In this document: in pieces, positions 3,001 to 12,000 of the stretch
Layout: the number at the start of each line of letters is the position of its first letter
Position numbering within the stretch: the first letter of the stretch is position 1
Made by a program: the position numbers
DNA from: Firmicutes bacterium UBA6113
Lineage (GTDB): Bacteria; Bacillota; Clostridia; Tissierellales; Sedimentibacteraceae
NCBI GenBank assembly: GCA_002422545.1
Contig: DIWF01000024.1
Span: forward strand, 36,072-100,071
Direction: 5' to 3'
DNA: 64,000 nucleotides

Positions 3001-6000
3001 GTCGAGTGATGGTATGGAAATTATTATTTCTTCTATATCGTATTTCCTTAGCATCTGAGGTATTTTATCAGTTATTGATACTACGGGCACGGAATTAATA
3101 CTTCTGCCTATTTTCGCTTTATCATCATCCACGATGCATTTCACTTGATAACTATTAGGATTATTTCTGCCTATTTCGTGTAATATGGCTAAAGTGGCCT
3201 GTCCTGCTCCAACTATCATTATGTTTGTGTAATGACTCAATTTTTTTGAGCTTTTATCACCTATAATCAGCACAGCCCTATAAACCACTCTAATGGCCAT
3301 GGTACAGAAACTTGTTACAAAAAATGCTACAATATATACGTAATATCTCACAAATATATTTAGTGTCTTGGTTAATATGAGAAACAAAAAGTTAGCCAGT
3401 ACAGAAGCCTGCAGACATTTAAAAATATCCTGTATGCCTGCATATCTCCATATATTTTTGTATACACCCATTATTATAAACATTCCAATATATACTACAG
3501 TGTATATATACCAAGTGTTTAGGAACCAATCTATTTTAGTTGGGTGTACACCACTGATAATATGTGGTGATAAATATGATATAACTGCAATAAATGTGTC
3601 TATTAGCACCAATATATACTTGCGGTATTTATTTAATAACTTGAAAACTTTGTTATACATATCGGACATTTTAGCCCCCTGCTACTTTTCTTCCAAAATT
3701 CTATTTCTTAATCTAAGATTTATACATATTCCCAATCCTAGAATTATACAAAATATCGGTGTAACACTTACCACGTTGTCATTAAACATACCTGCTGCTA
3801 GATATCCAATTACACAAATCAAGCATGACGCACCTAAATATTTTTCAAGAGAATTATAGTTTATTTTGAAATATAATTTCAAGCTGTTTATAATATATAT
3901 TCCCCATACTGAAATTAATGATATCAGTGAAATGGCTCCCGTATTAGTGGCAATCTGTAAGTACATATTGTGTGGTTTGTCAACAACTGTGGTTGGATCA
4001 TAAAATACATTTGATTTAGTTAACAAGTCATCCTGTGGAAATGCTATTGGGTAATTGTCTGGCCCCGAACCATAAATTACATAATTTTTAAGCAAGGGTA
4101 TTGTCCTACCCCAAATATAACCCCTGTTTGATGCAAGACTTTCCAGGCCATCGAGCTGTTTAAAAGTATCAGCTGTTATAGGTTCAGTTAATCTACCTCC
4201 AGAGCTTATCATCTTGACACCGCTGTTTGTAAAGTAAAAGTTGAAGTTTCTACCCACCCTAATCACTGTAATACCAGGATATCTTTCAGCAATTGTAATT
4301 TTATATCCTGCATATCTTTTGTCATTAATAGTTATTTCATTCCCTTTTGTTGTTATTTCCAATTCATTGTTGTTTTCATCCAGAAAATAAAGCTTATTTC
4401 CGTCTATTTTGAAATTCAGCGTCTCTCTGCTTGTTTTAAATGTAAATTCATTTTGTCCCAATATTATATCTTCAAATCTGATTGTTTTTTCATCATTAGC
4501 TGATGCCTTGATTGTTTCAATCTGCTCTTTCACATTGAATACTTTTAATCTGTTAACTATACTGCCTTCAGTATAGTTGTTAAGACCTACTAAAATCGAG
4601 GCAAATACTATTAATATTCCAGCAGACACCATCCAATATTTTTTAATAATCTTCCTAAAAAGTAACAGTGCAAACCCTGCAGCCACTGCAACTCCCAGAT
4701 ACCCTGCCCTCGAATTACACCCTATCCACACAAACAACATTAAAACCACTGCAATTGCTGATGCAATTCTTTGCTTCCTGTTCTTTGTTCCTATCAGTAT
4801 AGCAACCGCCATAGGCAGCATCAGTGTTGCAAAGCTTCCAACAAAGTTTGTGTTGAACAATGTTCCGTAAATTGTCTTTGGTCCGAAGGAAAATGAAAGC
4901 CCGTCAACCTGAATGTCTCCCGGTACTATCAAGCTCTTGCCTATTTCTGTCTGGAAGAAGTCGAATCCGAAGTACTGACCTACTCCTATTATTCCTTCCA
5001 CTATCATCAGGAACAAAAATGCATTTACAAATAAATTCACATCTCTTTCGCTATTTACAAAATTGATTGTCAGGAATGTGATGATGACGTAGCTTAACAG
5101 GACAAACATGCCTTGATACATATCCACAAATCCCCACAGTGCTGTTTGTGTATCTATGGCGAATATAGTTGATATTATTACAAATATTGCGTATATTCCA
5201 AGCGGTATGTAGTATTGTTTTAAATTCTTGAATGGTAATTTTTTTTGTTTATATAATATTATGTAAAAAATAAGTCCTATTAATGTGAGTGCCATTACCC
5301 AGCGGGATTTCCAGTAGCTGAAGAAATCCAGGTATTGCTGCTGGCCTGTCCAATAAAGAGATTGGGTTGTACCTGTCAAATCAATGTACTTAGCGTATAC
5401 TATAAGAGGCACGAAGCCTGCAATCAACAAAAGGGGCATGAAGTAAACCGTTGATAACCTTTTGTTTTCGTAATCTATATTAATAGGTTCTTGTTTTGCT
5501 TTTTCTTTTTTGACTTTCAATTTTGGTCCCCCATATTATTGTAGTAATTTGTCACATTTATTTTATGCTTATATATTATAACACGGTATGCTTCAAATGC
5601 AAACAAAAATATGCCTATGAACTAAAACGGTTTAGTTTTTATTCCTGGATAAATACAAAATAGCTTAAGAATGTTGGTTTGGTTTAATTATATAACACTA
5701 TTAATTCAATAAAAATGCTCCCTCTGCAAAACAGCCATATTTTTCTGTTTCTTACAAGGGAGCATATTTTATTTCTTAGATGTTGTATAAAATACCATAT
5801 TAGTTAGCTGTGATAAATGTTACACTCATATTTCCTTCATTATCAATTACTGTAACTTTTACGACAACATTACCAGCTTGAATAGCAGCTAACCATTCTG
5901 CGTCATTTGCATACCCCATTGTTGAATAGTTAGGATCAACTACAGTCTTTATTTCTTGATCAGCTGGTACTGTATTTACATATGCAGTATTATTTTCAGC

Positions 6001-9000: not shown

Positions 9001-12000
9001 CATACACTGCAATAGGTATTGCTGCAAAGATCATTGCAAATAACAACAAAAATAATATCGTTTTCTTATGCATAGTATTCCCCCATAAAGTTTTTAGTCT
9101 ATATTAAACTTTTAAAAAGTGAGATAAGAAATTAAAAAACCGCTAAAGATTCTTTAGCGGCCGAACCATCGTAATATGATTGCTCATATTTTAGACTTCA
9201 TGCTTTGCGTCCTATTTTTTCAAATAGTTTGCTTTTTTTAATCAAATTAATATTTTTGTTAAAAAACATCAGACTCATACTGATATTATTGTTAGGTAAC
9301 ATTTTTTATTTCCATTAACATTATATCATCTTTAACACTGCTTTAAAGCCATAAAAAGCTCAAATTTCCGACTGTTCTAAACTTTTTATGCCTTTTTTCG
9401 GCATTTTTCGTCACACTTTACGTGCTGGAGAATATGATACGAATGAGCTTGACTCAAATTTATATATAAAGGTGTTTTTATCAATGGGTAGACCAAATAA
9501 TGGAAACGCAGCCGGAAATACCGGCAGAAAAAAATGCAACAATGGTAATGTAGGCGGCGAAACAGGATTAAGAAGATGCGACTGCGAATGTGTTTATGAA
9601 TGCTTGTTTGAATTGTTAGCTGAAGCTGTAGAAGACAAAAAAAGATGCTCACATCCTTGTCATGAAAGACCCGGAGTTGTTAGCCCTGGCGGAGGAAACA
9701 AAAACAGATGCGAATGTGTTTATGAATGTTTGTTTGAATTGTTAGCTGAAGCCGTAGAAGACAAAAAAGGATGCTGGCATCCTTGTCATGAAAAACCCGG
9801 AGTTGTTAGCCCCGGCGGAGGAAGCAAAAACAGATGCGAATGTGTTTTTGAATGCTTGCTTGCTCTGTTAAGAGAAGCATTAGATTAATTTTATGTATGT
9901 TTTGAGACACCTTTGGGTGTCTCTTTTGGATTACAAGATAATCTCTACCATGTAATGAATGACCACGGGAGGGCACGAGACCCTCCCCTACGGATTGATG
10001 AGCAAATGTTCCGTTTTTGTTGAAATATGAATTCGGGCGGACACGAGATCCGCCCCTACAGTTTGATAAAGTTAAATATTCTGTTTCTGCAAGAATTTTT
10101 CAAGTTCTTCTGCAAACAACGGCTTGCTGTAGTAGAATCCCTGTATATAATCGCAGTCCGCAGATTTTAATGCCTCAACTTGAGAGATAGTTTCCACTCC
10201 TTCTGCCACAACCTTCATGCCAAACATGTGACATGACTTTATCATGCATTTTATTATTGCAAAATTTTTCTCATTTGAAATCTTGTCTATGAGCAATTTT
10301 TCAATTTTCATGTAGTCAAATATTTCCCCGTATTCCATAAGGTATTTTGCTGAGTTGAAACCAGAGCCGTAATCATCCAGAGACATCTTAATTCCCATTT
10401 CCTTCAATTTTCTCAATTGCTCATGGGCATTTTTCTCATCTAGTATGATTATTCTTTCAGTAAGTTCAAACTCCAGATTATTAGGATTTACATCGTATTC
10501 ATCTAAACATTCTTTGACATAGTCCACAAATGTATCATCGGATAATTCCTTAGCCGAAAGATTTATAGAAACAGGCATGATTATGCCCTTTTCATTCCAT
10601 TCCTTCATCTGCATGGCAGCGTTTTTTATAACCCATCTTGTTATTTGGTTTATGAAACCGGCATCCTCAGCTCTTCTTATGAGTTCGGAAATTGACATGC
10701 TTTTCTTGTCCTTGCCCTTCCACCTTAAAAGTGCTTCCACTCCAATAACTGAATTATTTTCCACATCTATTTTTGGCTGGTATGATAATGTGAACATGTC
10801 ATTTTGCAGAGAATGGTACAATGAAACAAGACCGCTGTAATACTTCTCCTGCTCTATTTCAATAATATCATCATAAATAACAACTTCACTGTGGCACCTC
10901 AAACATTGCTCAATAGCCTTGTCAAGCTTTTCAATCAGCCTGTCCCCGTCGGTTTCATGTTTTGGATAATTTATTACAGCTCCCTTCACCACTATTGATA
11001 CGGGAAAGTTTTCTATGTAGACAGGACTTTTCGTTGTGACAATGAAATTCTTGGCTGATTTAGCTGTTTCACATGCATCCCATTCAGGAAGTATGACAGT
11101 AATTTTATCGTTGGATACAGCATAAATTGTTCCGTTTGCGAAATATTTTTCAGTTTTTTTCAACAGTTCAATAAAAGATTTCTGACTTGTTTCTATGTCA
11201 ACGTAACGCTTGATCATATCAATATTCTGAAATTCAAACAAGATCACCGATATATACTGGTGTTTGCCGCTTGATGTCATAGTGCACAAATCAAGCTTGA
11301 ACTTGTTGAAGTTATAATATCCGGTCCTCAAATCCTCATAAGCTTTTCTTTTTTCGAGTTCTTCTGTTTTTTTAATCTGTTCAATCAGTGATCCCACAAA
11401 TACAACTATGACAATGAATATGCCAATCCTGAACAACCACATGGCAGGTGGCTGCATAATATTGTTTGCAGAATTAAAAGGCAAATAAGGCCCTACTGCC
11501 AGGCCTGCAACAACAGCGGTGATGATTCCTCCCTTGATGCCGAAAACCAAGACAGAAAAAAATAACGGTATATATAAAAGGTGAAGGGATGAATTGCTTC
11601 CTCCCGTCATGTATGCTATCAAAGTTGTTAAGAAAATAGAAAATATAATAAAAACAATGCTCAGTGGATAATTATATGTGTCCTTACCCAAGTCAGCAAC
11701 TAACACTTGTAGTCTTTTATTCATAATTGCTCCTAAATTTTATTGCGTTTTATATTATTCGGGCACATCATGGAAAAAACAGGGTGAAAAAATTAATTAA
11801 ATTATTTGACGAAATCGTATTCACAAGAACTACCAATGTTTTCAACAAGCAATACAAATATTTTATATTATTGCAGCAATTTTAGCAAGAGTATAATAAT
11901 AAAATGAAAATTTAATTATGCAAACATCAAGAATATTAATAGTTGCAGATTTTGTGCCAAACATTAATCATTTCTGATTTTTATTGCAAAGTTTACATTT

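Follow-up and report, generated by a model that had tools for sequence, protein, structure and literature searches.

A riboswitch-preceded pair of surface protein genes in Sedimentibacter-like Clostridia, with a putative SLH anchor and exchangeable partners

In Clostridium thermocellum, the cohesin of the SLH proteins SdbA and OlpB binds the dockerin of a cargo protein. A comparable division of labor can be envisioned for the locus described here, a pair of adjacent genes in a stretch of 64,000 nucleotides from Firmicutes bacterium UBA6113 (contig DIWF01000024.1, positions 36,072 to 100,071; the whole stretch is called the window below). One gene encodes an SLH protein, the other a secreted protein of 489 residues, p489, and each lies behind a riboswitch aptamer of the cyclic di-GMP (c-di-GMP) class. 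On balance, comparative sequence evidence argues for a two-gene, signal-induced surface module of Sedimentibacter-like Clostridia in which a cargo protein is anchored through the SLH protein. Such a module would be a variation on known surface display and riboswitch control, working most like an SLH-anchored cohesin-dockerin pair.

As in cellulosomal SLH scaffoldins, the SLH anchor ends in a beta-sandwich domain that resembles a receptor, diverse cargos with partly enzyme-like bodies carry one short tag, and attachment would be noncovalent. The tag differs in being N-terminal and strand-like rather than a Ca-binding helical dockerin; each locus has a single cargo gene, directly downstream, and binding here is putative. 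No cohesin or dockerin Pfam family was found in the proteins scanned at E<=0.1, and the resemblance is one of function only.

Other described systems share individual features with this locus. Clostridioides difficile uses c-di-GMP riboswitches to control the adhesins CD2831 and CD3246 as well as pilA1 and zmpI. GEMM-type riboswitches there gate clostridial adhesin or appendage genes and so tie the second messenger to the surface phenotype, and the aptamers of the present locus are of that type; the present anchor differs in using SLH repeats, not sortase or CWB2, and two class-I aptamers gate anchor and cargo separately, with A at position 20 in the window copies. Riboswitch-controlled surface proteins of C. 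difficile are touched on in PMC8610288. Riboswitches of the GEMM-Ib type, which respond to 3',3'-cyclic GMP-AMP (cGAMP), occur in Geobacter (PMC6140456); the window aptamers and those of four related loci likewise have A in place of G at position 20, but the host is a Firmicute and orthologous aptamers at four further loci keep G20. The N-terminal half of the anchor has the same architecture as, and is homologous to (E 1e-16), that of ChiW from Paenibacillus sp. FPU-7, which joins SLH repeats, a self-cleaving CBM-54 beta-helix, and Ig domains. Unlike ChiW, the anchor lacks catalytic GH18 domains, ends in a domain of its own, and is paired with a partner gene. Literature searches returned no paper describing the gene pair, its leader, its C-terminal domain, or a c-di-GMP or other cyclic dinucleotide riboswitch ahead of SLH proteins.

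The gene pair across nine loci

Both open reading frames are on the same strand, the partner gene downstream of the SLH gene with a riboswitch-bearing spacer between them (Table 1). They are as the initial annotation described, and every string it quoted is found in the translated sequence. The window derives from a hydrocarbon metagenome. Positions 7200-9300 agree base for base with independent contigs from four runs of a hydrocarbon metagenome; a sequence-archive search with the window sequence returned only four DNA runs, from one hydrocarbon metagenome, and no RNA run.

Nine loci were compared: the window, L001, L003, L004, L006, L007, L009, L010, and L012. In every one, an SLH protein that ends in the same C-terminal domain (CTD; hmmsearch E 1e-31 to 1e-65) is encoded directly upstream of a secreted, leader-bearing protein, across a gap of 185-214 bp. 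SLH repeats, a Gly-rich linker, and the CTD are the constants of the anchors, and the CTD is the sole non-SLH domain common to all nine, the beta-helix being missing from the L006 and L012 anchors. The constants of the partners are a signal peptide, an N-terminal strand, and one CTD-like beta-sandwich; everything else varies, giving five passenger architectures among the nine partners. The window partner has a helical stalk and a beta domain, and Pectate_lyase_5-type or NosD-type beta-helices are found elsewhere. The sandwich is C-terminal in every partner type except p489, where an extra domain follows it.

An exhaustive profile search yielded further proteins with the p489-type leader, namely P0052 (L006, Sedimentibacter acidaminivorans DSM 24004), P0061 (L007 and L008), P0044 (L009), P0020 (L010 and L011), and P0049 (L012). 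Relatives of p489 itself number three in 5.8 billion clusters, making it very rare, and each of them has an SLH protein encoded directly upstream; every other leader-bearing protein that could be placed likewise has an SLH gene upstream. A genome scan matched S. acidaminivorans only. Protein searches with a 46-residue leader profile, probably too short and hydrophobic, gave no match, nor did scans of metagenome contigs with leader and CTD profiles, for which the back-translated patterns were possibly too strict; either the system is rare or those patterns account for its apparent rarity.

The pair occurs in at least three unrelated neighborhoods, with an EAL gene and a Wzy_C glycan cluster in some, an RND-type pump and a family 2 glycosyltransferase in one, and a methyl-accepting chemotaxis protein and Cu_amine_oxidN1 in one. 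L007 is syntenic with the window (EAL, then SLH gene, partner, Wzy_C, and Polysacc_synt_2), but a passenger of the pectate lyase fold replaces p489. Between these two loci the CTDs are 70-77% identical and the partner Ig domains about 30%, and the partners share only the N-terminal motif SN.L.A...V. Constant pairing at nine loci, in differing neighborhoods and with five passenger architectures, supports the functional linkage of the two genes that had first been proposed from the window alone.

Two further points about p489 made in the initial annotation, its isolated N-terminal strand and its want of a wall-binding motif, were borne out. The strand, YTVISNKLTATVTVTA, is genuine and conserved, following an AxA-type cleavage site and preceding the helical domain. 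Across the partners, a signal peptide of consensus M.RTRFSKVLAL.LVF.MVMSS is succeeded right after the predicted cleavage site by [IVL]SN.L.A...V, in which S, N, L, A, and V are invariant in 9/9 aligned leader-bearing proteins. The strand has alternating hydrophobic residues (L-A-V-V) and lies outside the passenger folds, before the helical domain in p489 and before the start of the beta-helix in P0052. Strand and signal peptide are kept at the protein level across many synonymous DNA differences. A scan of p489 against Pfam and NCBIfam matched no family and therefore no known wall-binding motif.

Conservation is uneven along the partners. Identity between loci is 50-100% (mostly 73-95%) for the signal peptide, 40-100% for the N-terminal strand, and 24-63% for the Ig domain; the corresponding range for the SLH CTD is 37-79%. 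Sec signal peptides are not usually conserved more strongly than every mature domain, as this one is over five passenger types; the pattern may point to a dedicated pathway by which the partner is exported or processed. A TasA/SipW-type leader was proposed because P0017 and P0023, which share the C-terminal domain of p489, have Peptidase_M73 N-termini. This candidate was rejected: PF12389 and TIGR04088 match P0017 and P0023 but not p489, P0044, P0052, P0061, or P0020, and the C-terminal domain is all that P0017 and P0023 have in common with p489.

Predicted riboswitch control and the S-layer alternative

The scores of both window aptamers (Table 1) may be read against Rfam gathering scores of 35 for RF01051 and 59 for RF03167. 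The spacer aptamer is present in 9/9 loci, with compensatory changes in its first hairpin, and an aptamer upstream of the SLH gene is also found in L001, L003, L004, and L007. Ahead of the SLH gene, an intrinsic terminator (GGCCGCUAAAG) overlaps the aptamer, whose 3' end doubles as the terminator's 5' arm, and the terminator is the default fold; ligand binding should therefore block termination, and riboswitch 1 is predicted to be a transcriptional ON switch on the strength of this mutually exclusive pairing. In the spacer, the P1 3' strand of riboswitch 2, CCAAUU, has an alternative pairing with ...AAUUAAUCGG that masks the first GG of the GGAGG (7278-7282). The resulting anti-Shine-Dalgarno hairpin recurs in 9/9 loci (double compensatory changes in 4 of its 16 pairs), and a translational ON switch is predicted. 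A rise in second messenger, c-di-GMP or in the window clade possibly 3',3'-cGAMP, would then switch on both riboswitches; since both are predicted to be ON switches, anchor and cargo would be produced together.

Both window aptamers have A20, A47, and C92 (Vc2 numbering) with the ACC 3' element present, and the contact set for c-di-GMP specificity, G20/A47/C92, is departed from at position 20. That position is A in the window, L001, L003, L007, and L012, and G in L004, L006, L009, and L010. A20 is a signature of GEMM-Ib or bispecific aptamers, and the G20A mutant of Vc2 is bispecific (PMC6140456); the ligand in the window clade is therefore expected to be c-di-GMP and/or 3',3'-cGAMP, and these riboswitches may sense 3',3'-cGAMP as well. 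The presence of A20 and G20 among orthologous aptamers could reflect a natural shift from c-di-GMP to bispecific or cGAMP sensing in a Firmicute. The "GGC variant" label of RF03167 was considered and discarded: it needs G47 (consensus ACGCGAAGC), and all aptamers read ACGCAAAGC, with A47 throughout. The RF03167 score is owed to the modeled P1 and the short P2 rather than to the variant nucleotide. In S. acidaminivorans, L006 has a third c-di-GMP-I aptamer (61.5 bits) at 11504-11579 (+), some 4 kb past the module on its downstream side.

Riboswitch gating bears directly on one of the architectures suggested in the initial annotation, a two-part S-layer. In a constitutive layer of this kind, the SLH protein would be the wall base and p489 the lattice. 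Two-part S-layers are formed by the HMW and LMW pieces of C. difficile SlpA, which come from one cleaved precursor with a CWB2 wall module, and by SlaB and SlaA of Sulfolobus. Like SlpA, the pair combines a conserved wall-binding part with a variable exposed part, and the cassette-like swap at the syntenic locus resembles S-layer variation; the glycan cluster with Wzy_C, downstream of the pair at 4/9 loci, may also be compared with S-layer glycosylation loci. Unlike SlpA, it is made of two genes, it uses SLH rather than CWB2, and its expression is riboswitch-gated. Because both genes lie behind cyclic dinucleotide riboswitches, with the riboswitch 1 terminator forming by default, expression should be conditional rather than constitutive, and a constitutive two-part S-layer is accordingly very improbable. 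The passengers also include enzyme-like beta-helices, searches of Pfam, NCBIfam, and the PDB detected no S-layer protein family or lattice-type domain, and a literature search found nothing on a Sedimentibacter S-layer.

A probable shared domain, possible docking, and competing readings

The CTD of the SLH protein had been aligned by eye with the middle domain of p489, a claim that fared unevenly. Direct tests are weak. BLASTP returns only the terminal GEYKLTV/GDYNLTV piece (E=2.4, not significant); a Smith-Waterman alignment of the two domain segments, which were picked by eye, scores about 3.6 standard deviations over shuffles (p~0.002-0.004); and hhalign gives 19.7% probability over 33 columns for the SLH CTDs against the middle domain and, when a broader profile of the CTD family is used, 29.6% over 91 co-linear columns (E 5.7e-4). 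Seen in 13 of 60 unrelated retrieved proteins, the end motif G.Y.L.V is generic in beta-sandwiches. Of the shared spacing that had been noted, the interval from LxW to KYI holds (46 vs 45 residues), but that from KYI to G.Y does not (48 vs 34).

Transitive evidence through P0020 is more favorable. The C-terminal domains of P0020, P0044, P0049, P0052, and P0061 are clearly of the SLH CTD family: a profile built from SLH proteins only matches P0061 (E 5e-5), and the CTD-family profile matches P0020 at E 1e-7 to 1e-9 with P0020 left out of profile building. The helical domain of P0020 is homologous to that of p489 (E 3e-31), and its CTD-family domain occupies the position of the p489 middle domain, after the helical domain. 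Registers are concordant in a three-way alignment of SLH CTD, P0020, and p489 middle domain (GESKTISFEATANKEV, GDSINVSVTAKLAKNV, and GDTEIINVNLSLIDGV), and AlphaFold 2 (AF2) places eight strands in the same order in the SLH CTD and the p489 middle domain, the middle-domain model being of low confidence. Homology of the two domains is thus likely but short of proof, and the CTD family would then include the p489 middle domain as a diverged representative.

Taken with the constant pairing, these observations suggest how the module may work. The SLH protein would bind the wall as anchor or scaffold, and the cargo, which has no wall motif of its own, would be held noncovalently at the surface by the anchor CTD. 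The layout, with an anchor that offers an acceptor only and a partner with a tag plus an acceptor-like domain, fits what would be expected of such an arrangement. The N-terminal strand is the best candidate for a docking element because it is the sole feature of the mature proteins shared by cargos that stand beside near-identical CTDs; were anchoring correct, the strand would be the binding element with a chance of roughly one half. We infer a role for the module in adhesion or biofilm formation. A more ambitious combination, in which the strand docks into the CTD, cargos chain head-to-tail through the CTD-like domain that each of them has into an SLH-anchored fiber without chaperone, usher, or sortase, and the riboswitches act as ON switches with a cGAMP shift in the window clade, is improbable as a whole; within it, the docking strand would insert into, or extend, the beta-sandwich of the CTD as a strand-based analogue of cohesin-dockerin pairing.

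The same layout also invites comparison with donor-strand polymers, which include chaperone-usher pili, type V pili, TasA, and archaeal bundling pili. In a donor-strand fiber, the partner's N-terminal strand would complete the anchor CTD and then the CTD-like domain of the next partner subunit. Several features resemble these polymers: each partner carries a terminal amphipathic strand and a beta-sandwich, the anchor has an acceptor-like domain only, and the extension YTVISNKLTATVTVTA, with its alternating hydrophobics, lies outside the globular fold, before the p489 helical domain and before the P0052 beta-helix. Furthermore, the C-terminal domain of p489 is fused elsewhere to TasA/camelysin-type subunits (P0017 and P0023), and subunits of that type assemble by donor-strand exchange. 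The structural models lend this reading no support. The AF2 model of the CTD is a compact sandwich (predicted local distance difference test [pLDDT] 80-87, predicted TM score 0.65) of eight strands including both terminal ones, with no obvious missing strand. Foldseek with this model found generic sandwiches only and no close PDB fold (best E 4e-3, TM<=0.45), so that the structural check suggested at the outset turned up no significant pilin-like, TasA, or Ena relative. In the p489 model the helical domain (residues 45-230) is predicted confidently (pLDDT 80-90), but the beta domains reach only about 45-55, and the N-terminal strand is unplaced and of low confidence. When the whole p489 model was submitted to Foldseek, a single tandem beta-sandwich matched weakly (3hn5, TM 0.35) and the rest was noise, a poor result attributable to the low pLDDT of the beta domains, and a p489-profile search of PDB sequences gave no match. 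The TIGR04088 model of SipW signals fails on the leader, as does Peptidase_M73 on p489. No chaperone, usher, sortase, SipW-type peptidase, or processing protease gene was found among the genes of L001, L003, L007, L009, L010, and L012 or the scanned neighbors in the window. A donor-strand fiber, though compatible with the layout, is an unlikely reading.

Another account does without a complex altogether. The two genes would be co-regulated neighbors in a cyclic dinucleotide regulon, the shared sandwich would bind a common ligand (an exopolysaccharide or wall glycan, for instance) or be a mere structural module, and the partner would be released as a matrix protein or exoenzyme, its leader reflecting a dedicated secretion route. 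The conservation pattern, in which the signal peptide is the best-kept part of the partner, suggests selection for export over docking; several passengers resemble enzymes or glycan binders (Pectate_lyase_5, NosD-like), 4 loci have the Wzy_C-containing glycan cluster downstream, and no co-variation of CTD and partner elements is seen. The anchor also has a CBM-54 module, which in ChiW binds insoluble polysaccharides (PMC5132251). Such independence leaves unexplained the persistent pairing of SLH-CTD protein and partner over three unrelated neighborhoods and five passengers, the invariant strand motif after the cleavage site, and the retention of the CTD even in anchors without the beta-helix or the Big_2-like domain. 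The glycan cluster is missing from other loci. We regard this alternative as doubtful, but less so than a fiber.

Anchoring of the cargo through the SLH protein nevertheless has several observations to contend with. As modeled, the CTD seems to be a whole sandwich and draws generic Foldseek matches, the statistics for a common origin of the CTD and the p489 middle domain are weak, and ON or OFF polarity is predicted from pairing only. No part is more strongly conserved than the signal peptide, a pattern for which docking offers no explanation; no clear co-variation links CTD and partner elements across loci; and nine loci are few, several of them close relatives.

If the anchor does hold its cargo, the module would constitute a compact, previously undescribed means of displaying exchangeable surface proteins in SLH-bearing Gram-positive bacteria, by way of an N-terminal tag that stays fixed and a receptor domain dedicated to it, both halves being under direct second-messenger control. 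It would join the noncovalent display systems based on cohesin-dockerin, CWB2, SLH, and WxL, and could serve as a natural two-part scaffold for protein display. A cGAMP shift in the window clade, if real, would be a first for a Firmicute. The loci provide a natural experiment on riboswitch ligand specificity, with G20 or A20 in orthologous aptamers before the same genes, and the presence of one carrier, S. acidaminivorans DSM 24004, in a culture collection makes the predictions directly testable. Should the proteins not bind each other, the finding shrinks to an ordinary c-di-GMP-regulated surface protein operon.

Feature map, domain architecture, and neighboring genes

Table 1. Coordinates of the gene pair, its regulatory elements and protein domains, and adjacent genes in the window
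Feature	Position	Strand	Details
SLH anchor gene	7460-9073	-	537 aa; three SLH repeats, Pfam E 3.8e-37
Signal peptide of SLH protein	8999-9073	-	N-terminal hydrophobic signal visible in sequence
Three SLH repeats	8489-8992	-	PF00395, three stretches, E 3.8e-37
CBM-54-like beta-helix of SLH protein	7805-8476	-	Similarity to PDB 5gzt
GGGEKS, site of ChiW-type self-cleavage motif	8318-8335	-	Alignment to PDB 5gzt chains A and B
Gly-rich linker of SLH protein	7799-7840	-	
SLH protein CTD	7463-7804	-	Residues 424-537; 8-strand beta-sandwich; hmmsearch and AF2
Partner gene, p489	5800-7269	-	489 aa; GTG start; preceded by GGAGG at 7278-7282
p489 signal peptide	7186-7269	-	
Conserved amphipathic N-terminal strand, YTVISNKLTATVTVTA	7138-7185	-	Aligned leader proteins
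p489 helical repeat domain	6574-7137	-	
p489 middle CTD-like beta-sandwich	6265-6573	-	
p489 C-terminal beta domain	5803-6264	-	Residues 336-489
Promoter-like TTTAAA-16 nt-TATAAT, extended -10 TG, upstream of riboswitch 1	9320-9347	-	Consensus scan only, 10/12 matches, a likeness that does not in itself indicate function
Riboswitch 1, c-di-GMP-I (GEMM-I) aptamer, SLH 5' leader	9153-9243	-	RF01051 64.3 bits, E 1e-11, full model
Intrinsic terminator, GGCCGCUAAAG/CUUUAGCGGUU plus U-run	9128-9162	-	Terminator scan; minimum free energy and centroid fold
Riboswitch 2, c-di-GMP-I aptamer, SLH-p489 spacer	7312-7393	-	RF01051 62 bits, RF03167 59 bits, E 1e-12
Anti-Shine-Dalgarno hairpin	7281-7317	-	Fold; nine-locus consensus fold
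EAL-domain gene, c-di-GMP phosphodiesterase type, degenerate GGDEF region	10072-11724	-	Pfam EAL E 1.3e-62
Wzy_C membrane protein	3682-5520	-	Pfam
Polysacc_synt_2 dehydratase	1777-3669	-	Pfam; with the Wzy_C gene (1777-5520) starts the glycan cluster

The SLH repeats of the anchor match the SLH structures of Sap and SpaA (E 1e-8 to 1e-13). The anchor has the arrangement usual in wall-anchored SLH proteins, three tandem repeats behind a Sec signal peptide; such proteins bind pyruvylated secondary cell-wall polymer in a CsaB-dependent manner. Residues 200-423 form a CBM-54-type right-handed beta-helix homologous to ChiW according to PDB sequence matches, which cover residues 253-423 for 5gzt_B (E 1.2e-16) and residues 200-250 for 5gzt_A (E 0.04-0.07). 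The self-cleavage motif of ChiW is G-G-G-X1-X2/S-X3-X4 with N, Q, D, or H at X2, the slash marking the cut, and the two pieces remain together after cleavage (PMC5132251). Relatives of the window anchor keep GGGxN/S, with Asn at X2 in L001 and L003 (GGGENSVI) and in L004 (GGGENSIR); the window copy differs, its GGGEKSVI having Lys at X2, outside the ChiW motif definition. This Lys is confirmed in independent contigs, and the window anchor may be without self-cleavage.

A Big_2-like domain of about 89 residues, between Gly-rich linker and CTD, is absent from the window anchor alone (1/9). The window junction GPVAP/VVLNW (7799-7840 (-), vs L001 9200-9480) falls between the two VAP motifs that flank this domain in relatives, which suggests that it was lost by in-frame deletion. 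Two database proteins appear to be broken forms of the SLH gene in other assemblies, with breaks corresponding to window positions ~8095-8150 (-). P0006 equals residues 1-324 of the window SLH protein followed by K and a stop, a break explained by one extra A in ATAAAT; P0005 is a 78% relative that starts in the +1 frame about 15 codons upstream. These breaks could be sequencing errors or genuine.

The helical part of p489 consists of units of about 70 residues that belong to no Pfam family. Up to 32 copies of this repeat occur in giant aBig_2-rich surface proteins of 2,800-3,500 residues (P0012, P0014, and P0015), and it is also C-terminal in other SLH proteins. The C-terminal domain of p489, about 150 residues long with motifs KYC/KYSQG, VVDPNY.TM.YAD, and DNxGN, recurs on SLH, ChW, and TasA/camelysin-like proteins with SipW-type signals (P0017, P0023, P0027, P0029, and P0035). 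It looks like an uncharacterized distal functional domain of surface proteins.

Upstream, the EAL gene adjoins the module in the window, L001, L007, and L012. Downstream, Wzy_C, Polysacc_synt_2, and Bac_transf genes follow in 4/9 loci (the window, L001, L003, and L007); the L004 and L012 sequences end too early to tell. Their absence downstream of the pair in L006, L009, and L010 places the glycan cluster outside the core module, of which it had been considered a candidate part.

Two further elements lie between the EAL gene and riboswitch 1. A Cys-rich open reading frame of 166 codons (9388-9888 (+)), on the strand opposite to the pair, contains a 126-nt (42-residue) tandem repeat in 2.2 copies at 92% identity (CECVYECLFELLAEAVEDKK...HPCHE), and L001 has a called gene on the same relative strand. 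Just past the EAL stop codon, two similar GC-rich hairpins, GTAGGGGCGGATCTCGTGTCCGCCC and GTAGGGGAGGGTCTCGTGCCCTCCC (9960-10075 (-)), may be tandem terminators or a small repeat element.

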